This document shows, piece after piece, positions 2,701-21,025 of a stretch of 24,000 nucleotides of DNA. The notes below the pieces were generated by a model. That model was given only the letters and a program-made list of their open reading frames with translations, was not told the origin of the DNA and did no database searches. Origin of the DNA: Jeotgalibacillus sp. JSM ZJ347 (GTDB lineage Bacteria > Bacillota > Bacilli > Bacillales > Jeotgalibacillaceae); NCBI RefSeq assembly GCF_044383825.1, contig NZ_JBISEN010000005.1, positions 53,095-77,094 of the forward strand. Reading direction: 5' to 3'. Made by a program: the position numbers and the translations under genes. Every line of letters begins with the position of its first letter. Positions within the stretch are counted from its first letter, which is position 1.

Positions 2701-4100
2701 TATGAGACTCCAATCAGTACTGCAACAATCAATGCAATAACTGCGATACAGAACCAGCCAAGGATTAATTTCCAAATAAATTTAACCCATCGTTCATAGG
2801 GAATACCAGCAACAGCAAGATAGCCCATCAATGATGCAGAGGTTGGAATAATTGAATTAGAGATACCATCGCCATATTGATATGCGAGCACCGCAACTTG
2901 CCGGTTAATGCCCAGCAGATCAGATAAAGGCGTCATGATTGGCATTGTAGTGGCAGCCTGTCCGCTTCCTGAGGGAATAAACAGGTTTGTAATTGTCTGT
3001 ACCACCAGCATTCCCACTACATTCACCGTTTGAGGAAGCTGACTGATCAATGCTGCAAGTGAATTGACAAGTGTATCAATAATGACGCCATTTTCCATCA
3101 CAACAAGAATCGCACGAGCAAAACCTACAATCAACGCACCGAATGCCACAAGCTTCATACCATCGACAAAAGCATCAAATACCTGATTCACATTTAACCC
3201 GCCTACAAATCCAGAAAGCAAACCAATAATAATGAATGATGCAGCAAGCTCAGTTAAATACCATCCCCACTGAAAAACACCAAAGACGTTAAAAATTAAA
3301 CCACCAATGATAATTAAAAATACAAATAAATGCCTTGTTGAAAATGAAGGAAGTCCGGATTCCTTGATTTTCTCTTCCGCATCTTTTTTGGCTTTCAATT
3401 CAAGATCAGCAATGACACTGCGAGATGGGTCATTTTTTACTTTTCTTGCATATCTCATTACATAAAAAATTGCCACTGAAAGAATAAAAATGTATACCAC
3501 AAAGCGAAAACCAAATCCTGAAAAGATCGGAACCTCAGCAATGCCCTGTGCGATTCCAACAGTAAATGGATTCAGCATACCACCTATAAATCCGCTCGCT
3601 GCTCCGAGGCTGACCATTGCAGTACCAGTAATCGCGTCATATCCTATCGCACGGGCAATCGCAATCCCAATCGGAACAAAAATAATACTCTCCTCTGACA
3701 TACCCATGGTTGCTCCAAGCACTGAGAAAATAAACATGGTGATTGGAATTAATAAAAATTCTTTTTTGCCAAGCTTTACAACCGTTTTATGTATACCAGC
3801 TTCAATTGCATTCGTAGCGCGAATGATACCAAAAGCCCCACCTACTAAAAAGATATAAAAAATGATAGAAGAACCTGCTGCCATCCCTTCTGGAATTGCC
3901 ATAAAGACTTCAAAAAAGCCAATCGGATTTGATTCCACTTCCTTGTAGCTGTCACCAACCACGACTGTTCTCCCATCTACTTCTTCTCGATCGAACTGTC
4001 CTGCAGGAACAATGTAAGTTGCAATCGCCGCCAAAATCACAATCGAAAAAATAATGGCGTATGTATGTGGAATTGGCAATTTCTTTTTCTTTTCACTCAT
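2700..4100 (-). CDS. YfcC / DcuC-like family membrane transporter
   Basis: A 466-aa polytopic membrane protein. The N-terminus KKKKLPIPHTYAIIFSIVILAAIATYIVPAGQFDRE is typical of YfcC-family carriers. Its start overlaps the upstream stop as ATGA (4097-4100). Confidence 0.75.
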   Translation of the reverse strand: MSEKKKKLPIPHTYAIIFSIVILAAIATYIVPAGQFDREEVDGRTVVVGDSYKEVESNPIGFFEVFMAIPEGMAAGSSIIFYIFLVGGAFGIIRATNAIEAGIHKTVVKLGKKEFLLIPITMFIFSVLGATMGMSEESIIFVPIGIAIARAIGYDAITGTAMVSLGAASGFIGGMLNPFTVGIAQGIAEVPIFSGFGFRFVVYIFILSVAIFYVMRYARKVKNDPSRSVIADLELKAKKDAEEKIKESGLPSFSTRHLFVFLIIIGGLIFNVFGVFQWGWYLTELAASFIIIGLLSGFVGGLNVNQVFDAFVDGMKLVAFGALIVGFARAILVVMENGVIIDTLVNSLAALISQLPQTVNVVGMLVVQTITNLFIPSGSGQAATTMPIMTPLSDLLGINRQVAVLAYQYGDGISNSIIPTSASLMGYLAVAGIPYERWVKFIWKLILGWFCIAVIALIVAVLIGVS

Positions 4101-5218
4101 ATTATCTTCTCCTTTATTTCATCATATTTAACACTTAAGCTCTGCAGCAAGGAACGATCTATGTCAATGCCCAGACCAGGTTGCCCGGTAAGGACTACTT
4201 CAGGAATCTGGTAGCTCAGGTTACCAACGTCACTTGAGAACAACAAAGGTCCTGTAAGTTCAGTGCTGGTAATATTTTTTCTTGCCATCGCTGCGTGATA
4301 TCCTGCTGCTGAACCAATTGATGATTCCACCATTGAACCAATTTGACATGTAAGTCCTGCTGCTTCCGCTGTTTTAGCCATATGAACGGCAGGATAGATA
4401 CCTCCACATTTCATTAACTTGATATTGATTTTATCTGCTGCACGTGTCACAATCGCTCTGTTTAGATCTGTCTCACTCACAACACTTTCATCAAGCATCA
4501 ATGGAATAACAGAGAAAGATCTCAGTTCATTCATAGCATCAAATTCATGAGGGGCAAGCGGCTGTTCAATCCAGTCCAGATTAAGTGAGGCAAGCTGTGA
4601 CAGCGCACGTTTTGCCTGGTCAACTGTTTTCCAGCCCTGATTGACATCCACTCTGATTGGCACCTTGTCTCCTACTGTCTGACGAATCATATGTAAGCGC
4701 CGGACATCTGTCTGGACATCTCCACTCAACTTAATTTTTAATTCTCTATATCCCTCATTCAGCGATTCTTTGCATTGTGATGCCATTTTTTCTGGTGTTC
4801 CAATGGAAATCACCTTTGGATAGGTAAGTCTGTCATGTGCTTTCCCACCCAGCAGATCATACACTGGCAATCCTGCTGCTTTGCCCATTAAGTCATAGCA
4901 GGCGATATCAATTGCGGCTTTAATTGAAGGATTATGTATTAACCTGTCATTCATTTTCTGATGAATACGTTCAATATTAAATGGTGATTCACCAATCACT
5001 TCAGGAATCAGCATATGCTTTAATAGGGCGTACGCTCCTTCAAAAGATTCTCCTGTTACATGCTCATCAGGTACAGCTTCTCCAAACCCGCTAATTCCTT
5101 CATCTGTTTTTAGTTCCAGAATGATAGAAGGCATGTGTGGAAATGTTGCATAAGATATGACAAACGGCTCGATAAATGGAAGGTGGATTCCCCATATATT
5201 CGCTTCAATAATTTTCAT
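4097..5218 (-). CDS. Enolase-superfamily dipeptide epimerase (L-Ala-D/L-Glu epimerase-like, MLE subgroup)
   Basis: Motifs seen are LKIKLSG (KxK), RVDVNQGW, IEQPL, LMLDES and NIKLMKCGG, the acid/base and metal ligands of the MLE/dipeptide-epimerase subgroup. The start is chosen at ATG 5218 (MKIIEANIWG), with AGAGGTGA upstream. Confidence 0.75.
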   Translation of the reverse strand: MKIIEANIWGIHLPFIEPFVISYATFPHMPSIILELKTDEGISGFGEAVPDEHVTGESFEGAYALLKHMLIPEVIGESPFNIERIHQKMNDRLIHNPSIKAAIDIACYDLMGKAAGLPVYDLLGGKAHDRLTYPKVISIGTPEKMASQCKESLNEGYRELKIKLSGDVQTDVRRLHMIRQTVGDKVPIRVDVNQGWKTVDQAKRALSQLASLNLDWIEQPLAPHEFDAMNELRSFSVIPLMLDESVVSETDLNRAIVTRAADKINIKLMKCGGIYPAVHMAKTAEAAGLTCQIGSMVESSIGSAAGYHAAMARKNITSTELTGPLLFSSDVGNLSYQIPEVVLTGQPGLGIDIDRSLLQSLSVKYDEIKEKII

Positions 5219-5285
5219 AACAGTCACCTCTATTTTGTCGTTATTTTGTCGTTTATTATACATTATAATAATCTGAAAATTTTAT

Positions 5286-6551
5286 CTAGTCAACCTGATT
5301 CAAGAGTTTTTCTGTTGCACGATAGACTGCTCTCGGACGTCCCTGATCATATGGACGTTCAGTACCGGCATGTTGAATATATTGAAATTCAACAAACTTT
5401 TTGATCATTCTCTCAGCAGATCTTCTGGATTTTCCAGTGTAGGCAGCAAAATCATTTGCAGTAAAAGCTGGTGCGTCGCCATCAATAATAAATGATAAAA
5501 AAAGATGAACTGCTTTGGCAGCCAGATCAATTTCTTCAGCAATACGCAGGACATCTACAGAATCGGATTTAACTTTTATCTGCACCTTATGTTCAGCATT
5601 CCAATCTAATAAAACGTCTTTATCATTCAATAGATAAACTGCTGGACCACTGTGCTGATGTTTTTTTGCATACTGTAATGCATCATGTGCATGCAACTCT
5701 GCCCGCCTGAGCGTCTGCCCAAATCCAATCCCGATCACAGGTATATCTCCTGCTCCAAGCAGCTGCTCAGCATCAAAATTCTCTTCTACTGCTCCGCGTG
5801 TTGAATACAGATTCCAACTGTCATCCTGTTGTGTAACAGTGCCATTAAGCAACCGAATAAATGGATCATTTATCGCTTTGTATGAGCCATCTACTTTGAT
5901 TACTGCAACCTGGGATTTTTTCTCCTGCTCCAGCCTGCCGATTTGAATCGCTTTTTCGATTCCTTCTAACGTTGCAGATTCCGCCTGGATCATATAACGC
6001 GCAGGTACTCCGAGAGAAAGAAGCTGATCATATACGGCATGTATGCTTGTTAGGGCAATCAATGTTTCACCTGATTCATATAATGACCGGTGGTAGTTCA
6101 CAAACGCATCGAGGTCAAGCGTTTTTTGTTCTGATAACTCTTTATAGATCCATGCATAATCTTTTATGAACTTTACTTCATGGTCAGCCCCGAGCTGCTT
6201 AAGCACTCCATGAATCGTTCGCTGATCAGGCAAATCCAGTGACACCCGGCTCATGGTGATACCTTCCTGATAAAAAAGCTTGAACAACGAAAGCGCCACC
6301 ATTATTTCAGTAAACGGAGCGAAGGTGTATAGCAATTTTTTTTGCTTCACAGCAGAACGGGCATAAAAATAAGGAATGATACCTGAGAATAGCCAAACAT
6401 CCATTTTCTCTTCAACAGACCTGATTATACTTTCAGCCTCATCGGGAGATTCATATAAATATGGATAAAAACTGACTTCACGATATCTTTCTTTTAATTT
6501 TTCTATATCTTCAAGAAACTGCCTTGAACCAATTACACCAATTTTCATCAT
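5286..6551 (-). CDS. Hypothetical protein, possible transcriptional regulator with a C-terminal wHTH-like segment
   Basis: A 421-aa ORF with the GGGGG RBS close upstream. The C-terminal sequence FTANDFAAYTGKSRRSAERMIKKFVEFQYIQ looks like an HTH. I do not recognise the family, so the function call is weak. Confidence 0.55.
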   Translation of the reverse strand: MMKIGVIGSRQFLEDIEKLKERYREVSFYPYLYESPDEAESIIRSVEEKMDVWLFSGIIPYFYARSAVKQKKLLYTFAPFTEIMVALSLFKLFYQEGITMSRVSLDLPDQRTIHGVLKQLGADHEVKFIKDYAWIYKELSEQKTLDLDAFVNYHRSLYESGETLIALTSIHAVYDQLLSLGVPARYMIQAESATLEGIEKAIQIGRLEQEKKSQVAVIKVDGSYKAINDPFIRLLNGTVTQQDDSWNLYSTRGAVEENFDAEQLLGAGDIPVIGIGFGQTLRRAELHAHDALQYAKKHQHSGPAVYLLNDKDVLLDWNAEHKVQIKVKSDSVDVLRIAEEIDLAAKAVHLFLSFIIDGDAPAFTANDFAAYTGKSRRSAERMIKKFVEFQYIQHAGTERPYDQGRPRAVYRATEKLLNQVD

Positions 6552-6574
6552 GTCACCCCCTGAATTGTGGTCTT

Positions 6575-6583
6575 ATTATATCA
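6575..6583 (-). promoter_or_regulatory. Extended -10 element TGATATAAT upstream of the 421-aa gene
   Basis: Plus-strand ATTATATCA is TGATATAAT on the minus strand, matching TGnTATAAT. It lies about 25 nt upstream of the ATG at 6551. No good -35 was seen. Confidence 0.4.
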
Positions 6584-6680
6584 AATTTGAGCTGACGGAA
6601 AACAACACAAAAAAATACCGCGAATTTACGAAGGAGTATCCAGGAACACTAGCTAGCCTAAAAAACCTGTCTCAAAACAG

Positions 6681-6775
6681 GTTCGAACGTTCAGAATTGT
6701 TTTCTGGACAGGGAGGAACTTTCTAAACCACCCTGTCCTGGACAATTTCACACACATTCAGAACTAATTTCAAAA
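6681..6775. repeat. Dispersed intergenic repeat, two partial ends back to back (GGACAGGG ... CCCTGTCC)
   Basis: 6681-6713 GTTCGAACGTTCAGAATTGTTTTCTGGACAGGG resembles the right end of the 23.7-kb copy (GTGAATGTTCAAAATCGTTTTCAGGACAGGG). 6731-6775 CCCTGTCCTGGACAATTTCACACACATTCAGAACT resembles its left end and core. Confidence 0.6.
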
Positions 6776-13965: not shown

Positions 13966-14574
13966 ATGTCAAAACCATCATCATCTGCCTACGTACTCGC
14001 GTATGAAACGATCCGTGACAGAATTCTAAACGGAGAATTAGAAGGCGGAACAAAATTAACAGAAGAACGCCTTGCTGAAGAACTCGGCGTCAGCCGTACA
14101 CCCATCAGAGAATCCATCAGGCGGCTTGAGCAGGAAGGCTTAATCAAAAAGAAACGCGTCGTCAAACCAACCGAAAGCGACCTACGCCACATGTTCCAGG
14201 TACGCATGATCCTAGAAGGTCACGCCGCCAGAACCGCAGCCGCCTACATGACAGACGACGAACTCACAGCACTCGCCGAATGTATCCACGTCGGCCGCAC
14301 CGGCACCATCGAAGAAATCATGAAAGCCAATAAACAATTCCACGACTTAATTGTTCAAGCAAGTCGCAACCCTGTCATGATTGATATCATTGATCAGATG
14401 CAGTCGATTATTTATCTGTTCAGAAAAACCGTTGTGTATCATAAGAGACCTGGGTTGATTGATGAGCATGAGGAGATTTATGAAGCGATTAAGGGTAGAG
14501 ATGCTGAGAAGGCTGAGGAATTGATGAAGAAGCATTTGCAGGCGGATTTGGATTTTTCGGTGCATGTATTGTAA
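13966..14574 (+). CDS. GntR-family (FadR/FCD subfamily) transcriptional regulator
   Basis: YETIRDRILNGELEGGTKLTEERLAEELGVSRTPIRESIRRLEQEGLI is the GntR wHTH, and the helical C-terminal part is FCD-like. I prefer ATG 13966. The track's TTG 13921 start adds a Pro/Ala-rich extension, and neither start has a good RBS. Confidence 0.8.
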   Translation: MSKPSSSAYVLAYETIRDRILNGELEGGTKLTEERLAEELGVSRTPIRESIRRLEQEGLIKKKRVVKPTESDLRHMFQVRMILEGHAARTAAAYMTDDELTALAECIHVGRTGTIEEIMKANKQFHDLIVQASRNPVMIDIIDQMQSIIYLFRKTVVYHKRPGLIDEHEEIYEAIKGRDAEKAEELMKKHLQADLDFSVHVL

Positions 14575-14615
14575 TAGGAAAAAGCGTTGATTGGGGATCA
14601 ACGCTTTTTCCTATT
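14573..14615. terminator. Bidirectional rho-independent terminator (19-bp perfect stem)
   Basis: AATAGGAAAAAGCGTTGAT-tgggg-ATCAACGCTTTTTCCTATT. A-run/T-run flanks are built into the stem. It serves the GntR gene (+) and probably the 598-aa gene (-). Confidence 0.85.
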
Positions 14616-14667
14616 ACATTCTAGATCTTATAAAGACCACAAGCACAGGAGCAAACTTTGTGTAATT

Positions 14668-16464
14668 TTATTTAATTAACGCTTGAAAAGCTTTATATAT
14701 AGGAAGATTACTCAAAGCCTCTTGCTCCGTTTTACTCAAGGAATTAAATATTTTATTTGACTTATGCTTATTTCCTAATATAACCTCACATGCAAAACAT
14801 ATTGAGCTTTCGCTTTTCTTCTCCGCTTTTTCAAGTATTTCAAAGATCTCTTGCTCATCTTTAGTACTTAACTGAATTCTTTTCTTTATTTTTATCAAAT
14901 TGATATTAATTTTTGCTATATCGCTTTCTGGATCCTTTTCTAAATACCCTTCATTGAGTTCTAAAGCCAAATCTAAATATCTTTCATCATTGATTGAATC
15001 ATAATAATTTATACAATCCAAAGATTTGTTTATAGTAACGTCAGATTCAATGTCATGAAACTCCTCAGTGAAAGATAATTTAAATATATCAAAATTAAAA
15101 TTTGCCATTTCTTCTAAATCATTTATTTTTTCTGGAGTAAATATACTTACTTTCCAATACTTATCGTTCCAATCATTTCCCTTCCACTCACTAAATTCTT
15201 GTTCAAATTTTATTTCACTTTTGGGAGTAAATCCTCCCACTATAGACAATGCTTCTTTGCTAAACATATTAATAAATTTATTTCCGCTATACATAACCTT
15301 TATTTTTATATAATTTGATAACTCTAGATTAAATATCATATCTTCTATTTTAAAGTCTTTCTCAAAATTAATACGATCTAACTTTTTATCATTAAAAATT
15401 TCTATAATATCAGTAAAAAGATGCTCTAAGTCCTCGTTCTTATCAAACTCATAATTTGCACTAATTCCTATTTGATTAAAAATGTTTTTCATTTCTTCAT
15501 AAAACTTTATATCAGTTGACAAATTATCAAATAAGTCTTTTTCTGTTATAGTTACACCCAGGTTAATCTTATTAAAAGGTAGTTTACCTTTTTCGATGTG
15601 ATATTTAATGAAATACAAGCATTTCAAGTATGAATCGATCGATTTTATTTTATCTATATGTAACTTACCTGTTTTCACCTCTTTATAGACCTCGAGAGTT
15701 AATGTGTTTTCTATAATTACTATGATCTTATCTTCTGATTCTCTTATATTGTAATTAATCACCAAGCTATTATTGTCTATTTCAACCACTTCAAAATTAC
15801 CCATTTTAATCTCTTTTAGTAGTACAGAATTAAGAGGAATCTCATAATTATTTAAAATTCCGTACAAATAAACGCTCTCTTCAAACAAATTATAGCCCTC
15901 TTTATCAGTATCATGGAAACGGATCTTATAATTGGTGAAATCTTTTTCGTGAGATGCCTCAATTAAATGTTTTGGCTGGCTTTCTACTACTCTCAAAGTG
16001 TTAATGCAGATTGATTCTAGTTCTCCTATATTCAAAACTTTAAATGATATTGAGATCGTTTCATTACCGCTATTCTTAAGTTGATATAGTATACCTTTTA
16101 AATCTAACGGTGCAAGTCTTCTATAATATGCTTGCTTTGCTCGTGTGGCTTTATTTATGGTAACTACAAAGTAAAGTACACCTTGCCCATCTTTGTAATA
16201 GACCTCTAAGTCTTTTTTGGCGACACTATGTTTTATTTTATTTTTTTTATTTACTTTTTTAAAAGTTGTTGTTCCTTTTACTTGAACAGGAACTCTCCCT
16301 TTAAAATTAGCTTTTTCTATAGCACCATTATATATCTCAACATCACCATCAAATGAGAGCCCTTTGTCGTTCCACTTTACATTACTAATTAATCTGTATG
16401 GTGGTTGCAGTATATGATAGTTAATCTCCATACAAGCTAAGTGCTCAATAATCACCTTATCCAT
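14668..16464 (-). CDS. 598-aa hypothetical protein; N-terminal DUF4365 / PD-(D/E)xK nuclease-like domain plus about 430 aa of unassigned, partly helical sequence (candidate effector of the RT locus)
   Basis: Residues about 7-65 read EHLACME...NDKGLSFDGDVEIY...GRVPVQVKGTT. That gives the E ... DxGxD ... QxK arrangement I associate with DUF4365 and Mrr-like restriction-endonuclease folds. The protein is Lys/Asn/Ile-rich and the gene is very AT-rich. GAGGTG RBS. The domain assignment is from memory of the family pattern, not from a search. Confidence 0.6.
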   Translation of the reverse strand: MDKVIIEHLACMEINYHILQPPYRLISNVKWNDKGLSFDGDVEIYNGAIEKANFKGRVPVQVKGTTTFKKVNKKNKIKHSVAKKDLEVYYKDGQGVLYFVVTINKATRAKQAYYRRLAPLDLKGILYQLKNSGNETISISFKVLNIGELESICINTLRVVESQPKHLIEASHEKDFTNYKIRFHDTDKEGYNLFEESVYLYGILNNYEIPLNSVLLKEIKMGNFEVVEIDNNSLVINYNIRESEDKIIVIIENTLTLEVYKEVKTGKLHIDKIKSIDSYLKCLYFIKYHIEKGKLPFNKINLGVTITEKDLFDNLSTDIKFYEEMKNIFNQIGISANYEFDKNEDLEHLFTDIIEIFNDKKLDRINFEKDFKIEDMIFNLELSNYIKIKVMYSGNKFINMFSKEALSIVGGFTPKSEIKFEQEFSEWKGNDWNDKYWKVSIFTPEKINDLEEMANFNFDIFKLSFTEEFHDIESDVTINKSLDCINYYDSINDERYLDLALELNEGYLEKDPESDIAKININLIKIKKRIQLSTKDEQEIFEILEKAEKKSESSICFACEVILGNKHKSNKIFNSLSKTEQEALSNLPIYKAFQALIK

Positions 16465-16508
16465 TATTCACCTCTAAAAATAATTATTTGATAAATAAAA
16501 AATGATAA

Positions 16509-16526
16509 AGAAGGAAAAATCCTTCT
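16509..16526 (-). terminator. Terminator-like hairpin between the short RT gene and the 598-aa gene
   Basis: AGAAGGA-aaaa-TCCTTCT. On the minus strand the stem is followed by TTATCATTTTTTATTTATC (U-rich). It lies 45 nt upstream of the 598-aa start codon. The stem is short and AT-rich, so its strength is uncertain. Confidence 0.4.
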
Positions 16527-16567
16527 GTTCTGAGAAAAGCTTGTATATATACTATGATTTAATTAAA

Positions 16568-16609
16568 ATTCAGAAGTCATACAGAATTAATGTATATTTA
16601 CTTCGAAAT
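16568..16609. repeat. Core hairpin of the dispersed repeat family, inside the RT locus spacer
   Basis: ATTCAGAAGTCATACAGAAT matches 23753-23772 ATTCAGAAGTCATATAGAAT at 19 of 20 positions. The partner arm ACTTCGAAAT (16600-16609) lies 22 nt away, the same arm spacing as in the 23.7-kb copy. Confidence 0.55.
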
Positions 16610-16691
16610 GTGAATTTGAAATGAGTCTTAAAAAGCATTATCAAAATAGGGAGAGACTTCTATTATTACTTTTATAGTACATAATTAAAAA

Positions 16692-17807
16692 TCAATAGAG
16701 TTTGTCAAATATTTTCATCACCAATTTATTTTTGGTTATTTTTAGAGGTTGAGGTATTCCAATATTATTGGCAATTAAATGAAGTTGAGAAAGAGTAGCT
16801 TTGTTATAGTTATAAATCTGCGGTGCTTGTGAAAGGTTTAAAGAAAATAATAATTTTTTATTTTTTTTACTAAACAATCTGGAGGTATTAATTTGTTTAG
16901 CAATTTCTTTATTTAGTAAATCATAGCTTTCATATCTATTAATACGTTTATAACTATTTTTAAATCCATAAGATACTATTTTATTAGTAGAATATTTTTT
17001 TGTTTCAACTTTCCACAAAAGATTTCTTAAAGAATAATATAAGATATAAACATCCGATTGATTTCTGCTGCTATGAAAATAACGTGAAAATAATTCTTGG
17101 ATCTTTTTTATATATTTTTTAATTTTATCATTACTAACAGAAACGTCGATTTCATTTGAACCGTTGCTACTTTTGAAGGAATAACCAAGATATGAAAAAT
17201 CAAAATTGTTTTCTTTATTAACAACTTGTAGTTGAGTTTTATCATTTAGTTCTAACTGATAATTTTTCAAAAGCTTTTCAACTAAAGATATTAAATGATC
17301 TTTTTGTTCTTTGTGGTTACCATAAATCACTACAATAATATCATCTACAAATCTTTCATAGAGTTGTATATTAGGAAGAATAATCGGCATAAGTTGATCA
17401 AATTCTTCAAGATAAATTTCTGACAACGATGAAGAAAAGCTTATTCCCTGTGGCAACCCTTTAACCTTATTAGAAAACACGATTTCTTTCACCTTATTTA
17501 ACGAGTTCTCTTTTAACATCATAGACTTATTTAATTTTTGATACAGTTTATGAGTATTTATACTCTCAAAAAAATTCTTCACATCAAATCTTAAAATTGT
17601 CAGAGATGTCCCTTTAGCTATTTTTTCATTTTTATTACTTAAAACAGTTAATAAAGCATCAATTATGTAATCTCTGTTTTTATCTATTAATCTATACTTA
17701 TTTTTAAGTTCTAAATGAATCTGATAGTCAACTAGTTTTTGACTCGAAGGCGCTACATAAATATTACGATTTTTTATTATTAGACGCTTATATTTAGAAA
17801 CTTTCAA
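16692..17807 (-). CDS. Reverse transcriptase, compact form (371 aa), non-retron, non-intron; candidate defence RT (UG8/DRT3b-like by size and context)
   Basis: RT motifs read in the translation: IIKNRNIYVAPSSQKLVDYQI (RT1/2-like), LRFDVKNFFESINTHKL (motif A Asp), GLPQGISFSSSLSEIYLEEFD (motif B), YERFVDDIIVV (motif C, FVDD in place of YxDD), LELNDKTQ, and SYLGYSF (motif 7). TTG start with AAGGAG 10 nt upstream. Confidence 0.85.
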   Translation of the reverse strand: MKVSKYKRLIIKNRNIYVAPSSQKLVDYQIHLELKNKYRLIDKNRDYIIDALLTVLSNKNEKIAKGTSLTILRFDVKNFFESINTHKLYQKLNKSMMLKENSLNKVKEIVFSNKVKGLPQGISFSSSLSEIYLEEFDQLMPIILPNIQLYERFVDDIIVVIYGNHKEQKDHLISLVEKLLKNYQLELNDKTQLQVVNKENNFDFSYLGYSFKSSNGSNEIDVSVSNDKIKKYIKKIQELFSRYFHSSRNQSDVYILYYSLRNLLWKVETKKYSTNKIVSYGFKNSYKRINRYESYDLLNKEIAKQINTSRLFSKKNKKLLFSLNLSQAPQIYNYNKATLSQLHLIANNIGIPQPLKITKNKLVMKIFDKLY

Positions 17808-18064
17808 AGGTAATTCACTCCTTTTAAAGGTATGGCTAGGTGGTAAGCAAGCTCACCACCTTATCACCCCTCAACAAGCGGGTAATATTGGAGCTTAATT
17901 ATATAATGAATCAAGATCCCTAATGTGTGTGCAAGGAGCAGGTACTGTTCAACAGTATAATGTAAAAGCTTGACCGATCTAACAGTATATAAGTTGAATA
18001 AACCATTTCCCGTGTTACTTTTGGCCGATACCTCTGTTATTATAATAAGAAATAAAACAAAAAA
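17808..18064. ncRNA. Candidate structured non-coding RNA / shared control region between the two divergent RT genes (orientation unknown)
   Basis: 257 bp without a credible ORF. Patches are visibly more GC-rich than the surrounding island (for example 17832-17895). Features are a hairpin AGGTGGT-N10-ACCACCT (17838-17861), a palindrome TACTGTT-c-AACAGTA (17943-17957), direct repeats AACAGTATA (17951-17959 and 17981-17989) and TG(A/G)CCGAT (17971-17978 and 18022-18029), and a (TG)4 tract (17924-17931). The RNA itself is inferred, not demonstrated. Confidence 0.35.
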
Positions 18065-18079
18065 ATGGAAGAGGTTATT

Positions 18080-19966
18080 ATGAAAAATAAGTTTTTTCTT
18101 AAAACTGATGTTTTACCTTCAGAATTGCCAATAAATTTCACAAACAAAAACCTATATTTAGCAAAAAAGGATTTTTCGAATAAGATATATACTATTCCTT
18201 ATAATTTTGAAATCCCTAAACCTAATTCAATTAATAATAGGGTATTGAGTTTGCCTCATCCCATTGCACAATTACAAATGATGAATTTTATTGATGCATT
18301 TAAGTTTAATATAACTAGTTTTTGTTCGCTGTCACCCTTCAGTATAAGATCTCCTTATAAAATAAATTCAATAAATACTCATTTAATAAAAAGAAAGCTA
18401 CAAAAAATTACATATGACAATGAACAGTTTTTTAATGCTGATGATAAATATATGATCAGGCTATCTTATAACGATGTTGTTGAAGAATATCATAATTTTT
18501 TTAGATACAAGAAATTTAGTATGCTTACTCAATTTTTAAATTCTCCCATATATCATCGATCGAAATCTAAGTATGATAATTTTATGAAATTAGATATCCA
18601 AAATTATTTTGACTCAATTTACACCCATTCTATAGAATGGGCATTGGCAGGTGATAAATACAGTATCAAAACAGGGTCTTTAAATACAAATACTGATGAC
18701 TTTCTGAAGGCTATAGATTTAATATGTCAACAGATAAATTACAAAGAAACCAACGGAATCATAATAGGTCCAGAATTCTCTAGGATTATATCTGAAATTC
18801 TTTTAACAAGAATTGATTTAAATATATTTAGGGATTTGTTTGATGTTGGATTAAAATATAATAAAGATTATATTATTTATCGTTATATTGATGATTACTT
18901 TATTTTTTTCAATAATGTTAGTGATATGAATGATGATAAAATTAAAGGAATAATTAGTAATAGACTTAAAGAATACAAATTATCATTAAACGATAACAAA
19001 TATGCTTTAGCAGATTCCAAAACTACTTTAGAAGATGACAGTATTGTCACATTAATCAAAGTAATAGATTACTTTTCCCAAAAATATTTCGAAACTTCTA
19101 ACTTTGATAATCGTATGAAATACATAAGTAATTTCTTAATTGATTTTGAAGTTATTATACAAAAATACCCTACTAAAAAACAAAAGTTAGTAAGATATAC
19201 CTTAAAGTCTCTAAATAAATTTATCAAAACTACCAAGGTGGAACGTGACCGGAAATTAATATTCGAACTAGCTTTACACTTATTTTCTCATTCTCCTGAA
19301 TATTATAGTTCTAGGTATTACTATACTTTTTTTCTTAAATGTATAGAATTCTCTAAAAAAGAAAAAATGGACAAGAGTCTGCTACGCAAGTTAGATGAAG
19401 ACGCTTTTCATTTTATGGTGAAAGCTTTAAAACAGAATTCAAATCACTTCCCTAAAATATACGATTTACTTATAGCAATGAAATTTTTAGATAAGAAAAT
19501 ATCCTCTTCTTTACTTTGTTCACTAATTGAAAAACATAAAAACGATTATTTCAGTCTTTGCACAATTGCATTATATATATTAAATGAAGACAAAATTGTT
19601 ACTAAGCAATATATTATTGTGCTTAAAAAAATTATTTCCACTCTGGATTTCTTTTTAAAAAATTATACTCAAAAAAGCCCAAAGAAATATCAAGACGCTT
19701 TTTACTTCTATCTAATTAATGACTTTTATCATTATCCTGGGTTCAACAAAAATTTTATTACAAAAAAAATTCATATGTCTTTAAAAAATGAATATAATGA
19801 GATGAAAAAAAATATGAATTTAGAATCATCTGTAACTCCTTCTGAGATTGATGTATTAATCAACAGATCTTATTTTAATTGGACCTGTAAGTTTGAATGG
19901 TTCTTTAAAAGAAGTATTCTTAAATCTGAAAACATTTCAAATGATACTATTAATAGCGATTATTAA
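18080..19966 (+). CDS. Reverse transcriptase, large UG/Abi-type (628 aa from ATG 18080; 633 aa from track start 18065) with a long helical C-terminal extension
   Basis: Motifs: LPSELPINF ... RVLSLPHPIAQLQ (N-terminal RT region), FMKLDIQNYFDSIYTHSIEWAL (motif A plus the SIYTHS signature I associate with Abi/UG defence RTs), NGIIIGPEFSRIISEILLTRID (motif B), and YRYIDDYFIFF (YxDD). About 330 aa of Lys/Tyr/Phe-rich helical sequence follows. GAGG lies 5 nt upstream of ATG 18080. Confidence 0.85.
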   Translation: MKNKFFLKTDVLPSELPINFTNKNLYLAKKDFSNKIYTIPYNFEIPKPNSINNRVLSLPHPIAQLQMMNFIDAFKFNITSFCSLSPFSIRSPYKINSINTHLIKRKLQKITYDNEQFFNADDKYMIRLSYNDVVEEYHNFFRYKKFSMLTQFLNSPIYHRSKSKYDNFMKLDIQNYFDSIYTHSIEWALAGDKYSIKTGSLNTNTDDFLKAIDLICQQINYKETNGIIIGPEFSRIISEILLTRIDLNIFRDLFDVGLKYNKDYIIYRYIDDYFIFFNNVSDMNDDKIKGIISNRLKEYKLSLNDNKYALADSKTTLEDDSIVTLIKVIDYFSQKYFETSNFDNRMKYISNFLIDFEVIIQKYPTKKQKLVRYTLKSLNKFIKTTKVERDRKLIFELALHLFSHSPEYYSSRYYYTFFLKCIEFSKKEKMDKSLLRKLDEDAFHFMVKALKQNSNHFPKIYDLLIAMKFLDKKISSSLLCSLIEKHKNDYFSLCTIALYILNEDKIVTKQYIIVLKKIISTLDFFLKNYTQKSPKKYQDAFYFYLINDFYHYPGFNKNFITKKIHMSLKNEYNEMKKNMNLESSVTPSEIDVLINRSYFNWTCKFEWFFKRSILKSENISNDTINSDY

Positions 19967-20007
19967 TTGAAATATTGACAAATCAAAATCATATTATAAA
20001 AAACAAA

Positions 20008-20086
20008 CCCTGCGTTAGAAGTTATTTATGTCGACAATCAAAATCAGTTAACCTTAAAAAGATTGTTCAGCGCAGGGTATTTTTTT
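20008..20086. terminator. Bidirectional terminator-like element with an unusually large (56-nt) loop
   Basis: AAAAAACAAA-CCCTGCG ... CGCAGGG-TATTTTTTT. It has an A-run upstream and a T-run downstream, so either strand reads stem plus U-tract. An inner helper stem is GACAATC / GATTGTT. It lies between the large RT gene (+) and DegV (-). Confidence 0.5.
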
Positions 20087-20161
20087 ATTAGATTTTTATA
20101 AAACTCAATTTTATGTAGTTAGTACTTTCCCTATGATAAGTAACTGTCAGTTTAATCTTTT

Positions 20162-21025
20162 TTATAGCTTTTTTAAATTCTCCAACCCCGCAACCCCAAA
20201 TCCCCCAGGTCCCGAATGCGTCGAAATCATCCCACCAGCCTGAATCCATCTAACATTTTCAAATCCATTCTCCTTCGCAACTTCATCCATCCGTTGCTTG
20301 ATCCCCTCATCAAGTCCAATCGAATAAATCAGATACAGTTGCTCTCTATCAATATCGAATTCTTTTAAGTAATCACTAAAAAGCTTCTCAGTCGCTCCGC
20401 TCATTTTCCCGCGGTATTTCTTTGTGGAGACGAGCTTTCCACCCTTTAATTCGATGCATGGCTTTATTTTCAGCAGTGCGCCGATCAGGGAAGCCATGTT
20501 GCTGACGCGGCCTCCTGCTTTTAGAAATTCGAGGCTGCCCGGGATGAAGGCGAGTTTTGATTTTGGAACGACTGCTTCTATTTTTTCGATTAAGTGTGCT
20601 GGTTCGATGTCAGGTTCTTTTTCCAGTAAGTCAGCAGCATATAATACAACAGCTGCTAATCCTCCGGTTACGTTTAGCGCGTCGATCAGGTGGAGGTTTT
20701 CGAATTCTTCTGCAGCGATGACTGCGTTTTGAAAGGATGAGGATGCCTGTGATGTATAGCCGATATGTACGATGGTGCTGTCAGGGTACTGTTCTTTGAT
20801 AGATGTGAAAAACTCCTGGTACTCGTGAATATTCGTGGCGGTGGTGGAAGGTATTTTCTTCGTGCGGTCATAGTAGTCATAGATGTCCTGGACTGGTAAA
20901 GAGCCGTCCAGATAATCTTTTCCGTCCATGATGATGTGCATGGGAACGACTTGCAGATTGTACTTTTCAACTAGATCCTTCGGCAGGTCGGCGCCGCTTT
21001 CGGTTGATAGGATGATGTTAGGCAT
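20162..21025 (-). CDS. DegV-family fatty-acid-binding protein
   Basis: MPNIILSTESGADLPKDLVEKYNLQVVPMHIIMDGKDYLDG is a typical DegV N-terminus. The start is chosen at ATG 21025, with GGGGGA upstream. The track's 41-aa extension lacks an RBS. Confidence 0.85.
   Translation of the reverse strand: MPNIILSTESGADLPKDLVEKYNLQVVPMHIIMDGKDYLDGSLPVQDIYDYYDRTKKIPSTTATNIHEYQEFFTSIKEQYPDSTIVHIGYTSQASSSFQNAVIAAEEFENLHLIDALNVTGGLAAVVLYAADLLEKEPDIEPAHLIEKIEAVVPKSKLAFIPGSLEFLKAGGRVSNMASLIGALLKIKPCIELKGGKLVSTKKYRGKMSGATEKLFSDYLKEFDIDREQLYLIYSIGLDEGIKQRMDEVAKENGFENVRWIQAGGMISTHSGPGGFGVAGLENLKKL

Follow-up and report, generated by a model that had tools for sequence, protein, structure and literature searches.

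An opposite-strand DRT3 locus in Jeotgalibacillus and the DUF4365 nuclease-like gene beside it

We analysed a 24,000-nt stretch of DNA from Jeotgalibacillus sp. JSM ZJ347 (contig NZ_JBISEN010000005.1, forward-strand positions 53,095 to 77,094; hereafter the window, with all coordinates counted from its first letter), in which a gene for a 371-aa reverse transcriptase (RT) adjoins a gene for a 598-aa nuclease-like protein. Judged by its sequence, the RT is Drt3a, one half of the known two-enzyme antiviral system DRT3, and its partners, the second RT Drt3b and a predicted non-coding RNA (ncRNA), lie on its other side. We consider it quite probable that the locus holds two independent units that abut by chance in one AT-rich islet: a complete DRT3 system in the opposite-strand layout and a nuclease-like protein that works without the RT. 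Current interest in DRT3 comes from an enzyme of the system that synthesises DNA with no nucleic-acid template, and from the still unexplained way in which infected cells are stopped; a dedicated nuclease partner, if true, would be a direct lead to the terminal effector of the system. Because we judge the adjacency to be coincidental, the locus gives no such direct lead. It is useful instead as a Gram-positive example of opposite-strand DRT3 in which the ACACAC template can be assigned to the Drt3a strand, and it draws attention to a conserved, uncharacterised family of DREN-type nucleases of about 600 aa, which may reasonably be considered a candidate single-gene defence system of a new kind.

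The DRT3 unit

Three open reading frames (ORFs) fill an islet of 5.4 kb (~14.6–20.1 kb) that has sharp edges and is set between housekeeping genes: the 598-aa ORF, the 371-aa RT and a 633-aa ORF. The latter two, with the region between them, make up the DRT3 unit.

16692–17807, − strand: Drt3a (UG3, a class 2 UG/Abi RT), 371 aa, TTG start, catalytic F-V-D-D; from PADLOC, NCBIfam and RVT_1
18065–19966, + strand: Drt3b (UG8, a class 1 UG/Abi RT), 633 aa, catalytic Y-I-D-D; from PADLOC and NCBIfam
17826–18037 (ends approximate), − strand: predicted DRT3 ncRNA in the 5′ leader of Drt3a; from motif conservation and a consensus fold

The 371-aa protein matches PADLOC model PDLC03768 over residues 8–341 (E = 3.1e-63) and Pfam RVT_1 (E = 1.9e-15), and its top NCBIfam match is Drt3a, at 155 bits, under the 200-bit equivalog cut-off. 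The protein encoded on the opposite strand matches the PADLOC Drt3b model (E = 6.6e-117) and has Drt3b as its top NCBIfam match, at 278 bits, under the 350-bit cut-off. Both active sites are intact (...RFVDDIIVV... in Drt3a and ...YRYIDDYFIFF... in Drt3b). Because both proteins score under the NCBIfam equivalog cut-offs, we assign them to DRT3 as divergent members. Homologues of Drt3a with 34–62% identity from seven other lineages are each paired with a divergent Drt3b, and an ORF of 624–664 aa occupies the divergent position of Drt3b at every related locus.

The window thus resembles described DRT3 systems in having both RTs of the right family and size, with FVDD and YIDD intact, and a predicted cis ncRNA that exposes ACACAC. 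It resembles in particular the layout reported for Terrabacteria (Mestre et al. 2022), as the genes are divergent and the predicted ncRNA falls in their common intergenic region, and on these grounds we regard it as a clean and complete Gram-positive example of that layout. It differs from E. coli DRT3, in which drt3a, drt3b and the ncRNA follow one another on one strand (Wang et al. 2026 preprint), whereas the window ncRNA lies upstream of drt3a on the strand of drt3a. It differs also in that its RTs fall under the NCBIfam cut-offs and are known here from sequence.

The closest DRT3 relatives (60–62% Drt3a identity; L081/L082 and L084, about 2739–6725 in each) come from two genera and lie directly downstream of groES–groEL. 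This insertion site differs from that in the window, which suggests that the DRT3 unit moves as a cassette of two genes plus ncRNA. In two further lineages DRT3 adjoins genes for AAA_15/AAA_21 ATPases (L085, 516–4294; L091, 151–1230), which are common in several defence systems; these neighbours suggest that, as in the window, opposite-strand DRT3 is located in defence islands.

A predicted ncRNA on the Drt3a strand

The divergent genes share an intergenic region of 257 nt (17808–18064). We aligned this region with its counterparts from the seven other lineages and derived a consensus fold from the four closest sequences. The + strand of the window reads GTGTGTG at 17925–17931, which is the ACACAC(A) template motif on the Drt3a strand. 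The motif CACACACATTAGGG is kept on the Drt3a-sense strand in seven of the eight lineages, and the core (C)ACACACATTAGGG is likewise kept in 7/8 intergenic regions, always in the Drt3a sense. The consensus fold comprises 35 pairs, 12 of them with compensatory changes, and several of its G–U pairs are compatible with the Drt3a strand only. A long-range stem, in which 18023–18035 pairs with 17826–17839, closes the predicted ncRNA and leaves the ACACAC motif unpaired; a conserved TATAAT box (~18039–18044) lies directly upstream.

In E. coli DRT3, 5′-ACACAC-3′ is the experimentally defined template and sits in a conserved loop of the ncRNA; Drt3a uses it to make poly(dT-dG), and Drt3b produces poly(dC-dA) with no nucleic-acid template (bioRxiv 10.64898/2026.05.04.722794). 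For opposite-strand DRT3 (the window, L081, L084, L085 and L090–L092), the alignment points to an ACACAC-bearing ncRNA on the Drt3a strand, in the 5′ leader of Drt3a, with TATAAT ahead of it. Mestre et al. (2022, PMC9226505) described UG3 and UG8 of Terrabacteria on opposite strands with an ncRNA upstream of UG8; their main text places it no more precisely than ‘upstream of UG8’ and gives the CACACA motif for groups with both genes on the same strand, and the assignment of strand and motif in the opposite-strand group may be a small addition to that work.

The palindrome TTATTATAATAA at 18036–18047 places a TATAAT −10 box on both strands, and may hold two divergent promoters set back to back, one for Drt3b and one for the ncRNA with Drt3a. 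With a transcription start so close, a Drt3b start at the second ATG (18080, after GGAAGAGG) is more plausible than one at 18065, and would give a protein of 628 aa.

By analogy with E. coli DRT3, a mechanism can be proposed for the window locus. Drt3b (+) and Drt3a (−) would be transcribed divergently, with the ncRNA on the Drt3a strand exposing ACACAC. Drt3a would use this template to synthesise poly(dT-dG), and poly(dC-dA) would come from Drt3b with no nucleic-acid template; the double-stranded DNA so formed would build up once a phage blocks the host nucleases, leading to abortive infection.

A DUF4365 protein with a middle region of no known match

The third gene of the islet encodes a protein in which three regions can be told apart.

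14668–16464, − strand: 598-aa stand-alone DUF4365 protein (DREN-like PD-(D/E)xK); from the ORF, Pfam, conserved residues, AlphaFold2 and Foldseek
15970–16464, − strand: nuclease domain, residues ~1–165
15055–15969, − strand: beta-rich/helical middle region, a fold of no known match, residues ~166–470
14671–15054, − strand: TPR-like helical tail, residues ~471–598

Pfam DUF4365 (PF14280) matches residues 37–152 (E = 1.3e-5), a narrow pass, with a score of 25.7 bits where the gathering cut-off is 24.3; the matches of homologues are similar or slightly stronger. In an alignment of 73 family sequences, E7, D33, G40, K51, Q61, K63, G64 and D85 are invariant, and K34 and D39 are at least 90% conserved. 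A first-pass annotation of this DNA had proposed a restriction-endonuclease-like fold of the DUF4365 type from E7, D39-G-D41-V-E43 and Q61-V-K63. These residues are present in the translation as it gave them, and E7, D39, Q61 and K63 keep the place it gave them at the catalytic positions, but D41 and E43 vary, which reduces the conserved core to E7...D39...Q61-x-K63.

The proposed fold is borne out by the Pfam match and by an AlphaFold2 model (predicted local distance difference test score, pLDDT, 89.3). In the model the nuclease core runs alpha-beta-beta-beta-alpha-beta, with D39 where the second strand begins and QxK in the adjacent third strand. The top matches of the model in the Protein Data Bank (PDB), found with Foldseek, are DREN–APAZ chains of SPARDA (9vx6_T, 9jsz_J and 9qcc_Y) and the viral D212 nuclease; for the nuclease domain, probabilities are 0.97–1.0 and E-values are weak, at 4e-3 to 2e-2. 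Profile searches against solved structures, made with the whole family and with the N-terminal domain alone, returned nothing meaningful at the sequence level. The C-terminal ~100 aa, which the same annotation had taken to be helical, form part of eight modelled helices over residues 475–597, and their Foldseek matches are TPR-like. Sequence and model together identify the N terminus as a DUF4365-type PD-(D/E)xK domain with a predicted catalytic D...QxK.

The closest functional comparison is SPARDA. Its DUF4365–APAZ protein TmuRE has a Q62/K64 active site that was found by alignment, with a Q62A/K64A mutant built as an inactive control, and its DUF4365 nuclease is a non-specific, activation-dependent DNase (PMC10810196). 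The 598-aa protein shares with it the Pfam domain, the leading structural matches and a Q-x-K at nearly the same position, Q61/K63 corresponding to Q62/K64. Unlike SPARDA, its gene has no adjoining short Argonaute gene and is flanked by those for Drt3a and a GntR/FCD regulator, and its nuclease domain is followed by an unmatched region of 300 aa and a TPR-like tail, with no credible APAZ match. An APAZ-like middle region had been considered because a SPARDA chain aligned over 445 columns. It was rejected: modelled alone (pLDDT 86), residues 166–470 gave no credible PDB match, all probabilities being 0.41 or lower, and no SPARDA chain was listed.

A conserved family with changing neighbours

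Proteins of this family, of ~590–630 aa, are frequent in Bacillaceae at 35–51% identity, and full-length relatives at 20–28% identity occur in Paenibacillus, Clostridia and Bacteroidota. Among 1.84 billion representative clusters, the C-terminal 433 aa recovered only 59; the full-length matches were nearly all 580–634 aa long, with the match starting near residue 170–210. Of ten distant members checked, five carry DUF4365 at E ≤ 0.01, four of these above the gathering score. By sequence and model, the family architecture is fixed: a DREN-like nuclease, an unmatched beta-rich middle and a TPR-like tail. Effector swapping, in which the C-terminal 433 aa would be fused to other N-terminal effectors, is a hallmark of modular defence proteins; it was rejected here, as 59/59 representatives share the same layout.

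The genes are patchy in distribution and AT-rich relative to their flanks, and the family is found in 31 plasmid records and in no phage record. When the neighbours at 23 full-length loci (the window among them) were clustered, no conserved neighbour of any kind emerged: the protein is encoded throughout by a single gene, in settings that vary and are often rich in defence genes or on plasmids. Defence genes near family members include type III restriction–modification, Avs1b, PsyrT, GajB/DpdF-like helicases, GmrSD and HNH; recurrent neighbour domains, given here as raw counts without a background rate, include ResIII (7/119) and DEAD helicase (5/119), alongside methylases and resolvases. Many neighbours are housekeeping genes.

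Two sets of relatives stand out. Many Priestia megaterium plasmid copies (H7–H15, for example NZ_CP058266.1, 6299–7852) match from residue 81–85 onward only, and one is annotated as 517 aa; such copies would lack E7, D39 and Q61/K63, and may be truncated or inactivated nuclease genes. Distant members in Hespellia (Clostridium group; L012, 4076–15180) and in a metagenome-assembled genome of Paludibacter (Bacteroidota; L024, 21–7996) lie in a common four-gene block, with products of about 1091, 203, 612–657 and 1045 aa, which is probably a restriction–modification or helicase cassette common to both phyla.

The two genes are sampled together only here

The first-pass annotation had read the RT and the 598-aa protein as a possible RT-plus-nuclease effector module, in which the RT would control the nuclease as in retrons. 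Its account of the layout is accurate: both ORFs lie where it placed them, on the same (−) strand with the RT upstream and 227 nt between them. Linkage was examined from both sides.

On the nuclease side, a scan of a genome collection yielded 80 loci that encode relatives of this protein, and neither Drt3a nor Drt3b lay within 8 kb of any of these relatives (0/80). A Drt3a-family hidden Markov model run over all ORFs of these loci, which is insensitive to distant RTs (Drt3b itself went unscored), picked up one RT-like ORF, beside a distant DUF4365-only match outside the family. No RT gene appears in the annotation around the three closest relatives (48–50% identity) or two plasmid copies (5/5 without); the surroundings of the three closest hold GmrSD-, HNH-, DUF2726- and PLD-type genes, or an adjoining integrase.

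On the DRT3 side, the unit of Drt3b, intergenic region and Drt3a is kept in all seven other lineages, and a DUF4365 gene lies beside it in none of them (0/7); for two (L091 and L092), the sequence available downstream is shorter than about 1 kb. What follows Drt3a changes from lineage to lineage: an IS3 transposase, a hydrolase, DUF6262 with integrases, a methionyl-tRNA synthetase gene or an integrase, and in the short stretches of L091 and L092 no called gene.

The gap between the two genes in the window contains one feature of note.

16509–16526, − strand: terminator-like hairpin AGAAGGA-TTTT-TCCTTCT with a T-rich tail, between the Drt3a stop and the 598-aa start, 45 nt upstream of the ATG

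It is the sole terminator-like site in 14400–20300, where 1.4 would be expected by chance, and is weak evidence alone. Past the coding start, the gap is not homologous at the nucleotide level to either DRT3 or nuclease loci, and it folds no better than shuffled sequence (z = −0.65). Low GC content common to both genes was considered as evidence of co-transfer and rejected, as both families are AT-rich relative to their flanks in every genome checked.

The pairing of RT and nuclease was found in this genome alone among those sampled, and appears coincidental. The effector module that had been proposed finds no support in these counts or in the neighbour clustering, which show homologues of the nuclease apart from DRT3 genes throughout; control of the nuclease in the manner of retrons is disfavoured by the same counts, and the RT belongs to DRT3, with Drt3b and the ncRNA as its partners. 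The short RT that the annotation had recognised is real, but it had not been linked to the second RT (18065–19966, +) or to the intergenic region that bears ACACAC.

RT systems with optional PD-(D/E)xK partners do exist, such as UG7 with cluster 17 and UG26 with YcjD-like proteins (Mestre 2022, PMC9226505), and the window resembles these and the retron RT–effector modules in that an RT gene adjoins a restriction-fold nuclease gene. In those systems, however, the pairing recurs in many genomes, whereas that of the window occurs in one among those sampled, and the window RT already has defined partners of its own.

A probable stand-alone defence nuclease

The gene context and the domain analogy make the 598-aa protein most likely an independent, stand-alone defence nuclease. 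It would be a self-contained sensor plus effector: the role of the middle and TPR regions would be to detect a trigger or bring about self-assembly, after which DNA would be cut by the QxK nuclease, much as this domain cuts it on SPARDA oligomerisation. Among anti-phage candidates or systems of a single gene that start with DUF4365, it is comparable with Divona, a Vibrio integron cassette that carries DUF4365, a RecB-like nuclease and a crr6 domain; compared by domain layout, Divona ends in crr6 where the 598-aa protein has its unmatched middle and TPR-like tail. We put the chance that the ~600-aa family of DUF4365, unmatched middle and TPR constitutes a new single-gene anti-phage system at roughly even.

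Several observations weigh against reading the locus as two independent units with a defence nuclease as one of them. The two genes are co-stranded and 227 nt apart, and no convincing promoter was found between the hairpin at 16509–16526 and the 598-aa start codon; the one good consensus match, TTGACA-16-AATTAT (16708–16681), straddles the Drt3a stop codon. With no clear promoter after the hairpin, read-through co-transcription, or a long leader that contains the hairpin, is possible. The DRT3-side sample consists of seven other lineages, two of them short downstream. The terminal effector step of DRT3 is described as unknown in the preprint on that system (bioRxiv 10.64898/2026.05.04.722794), which leaves conceptual room for an accessory nuclease. 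For the defence role, which draws on gene context and domain analogy, the structural matches have weak E-values, neither PADLOC nor NCBIfam has a model that matches the 598-aa protein, and the neighbour figures are raw counts.

The main alternative to a triggered defence nuclease is a constitutive restriction-like enzyme (for example, type IV or modification-dependent) that is likewise independent of the RT, the middle and TPR regions of which would recognise DNA so that foreign DNA is cut directly. PD-(D/E)xK and DUF4365 are classic restriction folds, the protein is encoded by a single gene without a methyltransferase partner, and restriction–modification or GmrSD genes are often nearby. Nevertheless, we find this role rather unlikely: no DNA-binding or modification-reading domain is recognisable, the middle has no structural match, a TPR-like tail is of a fold that is more often protein-binding, and the characterised DUF4365 nuclease of SPARDA/TmuRE is non-specific and depends on activation (PMC10810196).

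It is improbable that the protein has no defence role, whether as plasmid or integrative-element cargo with another nuclease function or as a decaying gene. The lack of a PADLOC or NCBIfam defence model, the many housekeeping neighbours and the several Priestia plasmid copies that start matching at residue 81–85, and may lack the catalytic N terminus, would fit such a view. Against it, the catalytic residues and the full length are kept across Bacillota and Bacteroidota at 20–50% identity, the distribution is patchy, the genes are AT-rich relative to their flanks and defence genes recur nearby.

A lineage-specific, three-gene DRT3, in which a captured DUF4365 nuclease, co-transcribed with Drt3a, would be the downstream or terminal effector, with the poly(dTdG)/(dCdA) DNA or the RT complex as its activator or its target, is very improbable. 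In its favour, the nuclease gene lies co-stranded and directly downstream of Drt3a inside one AT-rich islet and has no clear promoter of its own, the effector step of DRT3 is stated as unknown, and optional PD-(D/E)xK partners occur in other UG/Abi groups such as UG7 and UG26 (Mestre 2022, PMC9226505). Against it, the pairing recurs in none of the seven other DRT3 lineages, the 80 DUF4365 loci or the annotation of the five further loci, the nuclease family is conserved in complete form where no RT is present, a terminator-like hairpin stands between the genes, and EcoDRT3 defends with two RTs and the ncRNA alone (bioRxiv 10.64898/2026.05.04.722794).

Edges of the islet

To the left of the islet lie a sugar-acid operon and the gene for the GntR/FCD regulator; to its right lies a DegV gene. 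The NCBI annotation of the strain holds proteins identical to the 598-aa and 371-aa products (P0001 and P0081; 100% identity and coverage). On neither side of the islet is there a direct repeat or att-like site above chance AT-rich matches, and no Rfam family matches anywhere in the window. Directly past the Drt3b stop, at 20006–20086, a long hairpin (AACCCTGCG ... CGCAGGGT) followed by a T run is a probable terminator and the probable right edge of the islet; its loop of ~56 nt kept it out of the terminator scan. The left edge is marked by a second repeat.

14570–14618, strand not applicable: inverted repeat I3, 22 nt and perfect, with a 5-nt loop, separating the GntR/FCD regulator gene from the 598-aa gene

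By this repeat, GC content drops from ~45% in the left flank to the 25–28% of the islet genes, and the repeat itself is likely to be a bidirectional terminator.

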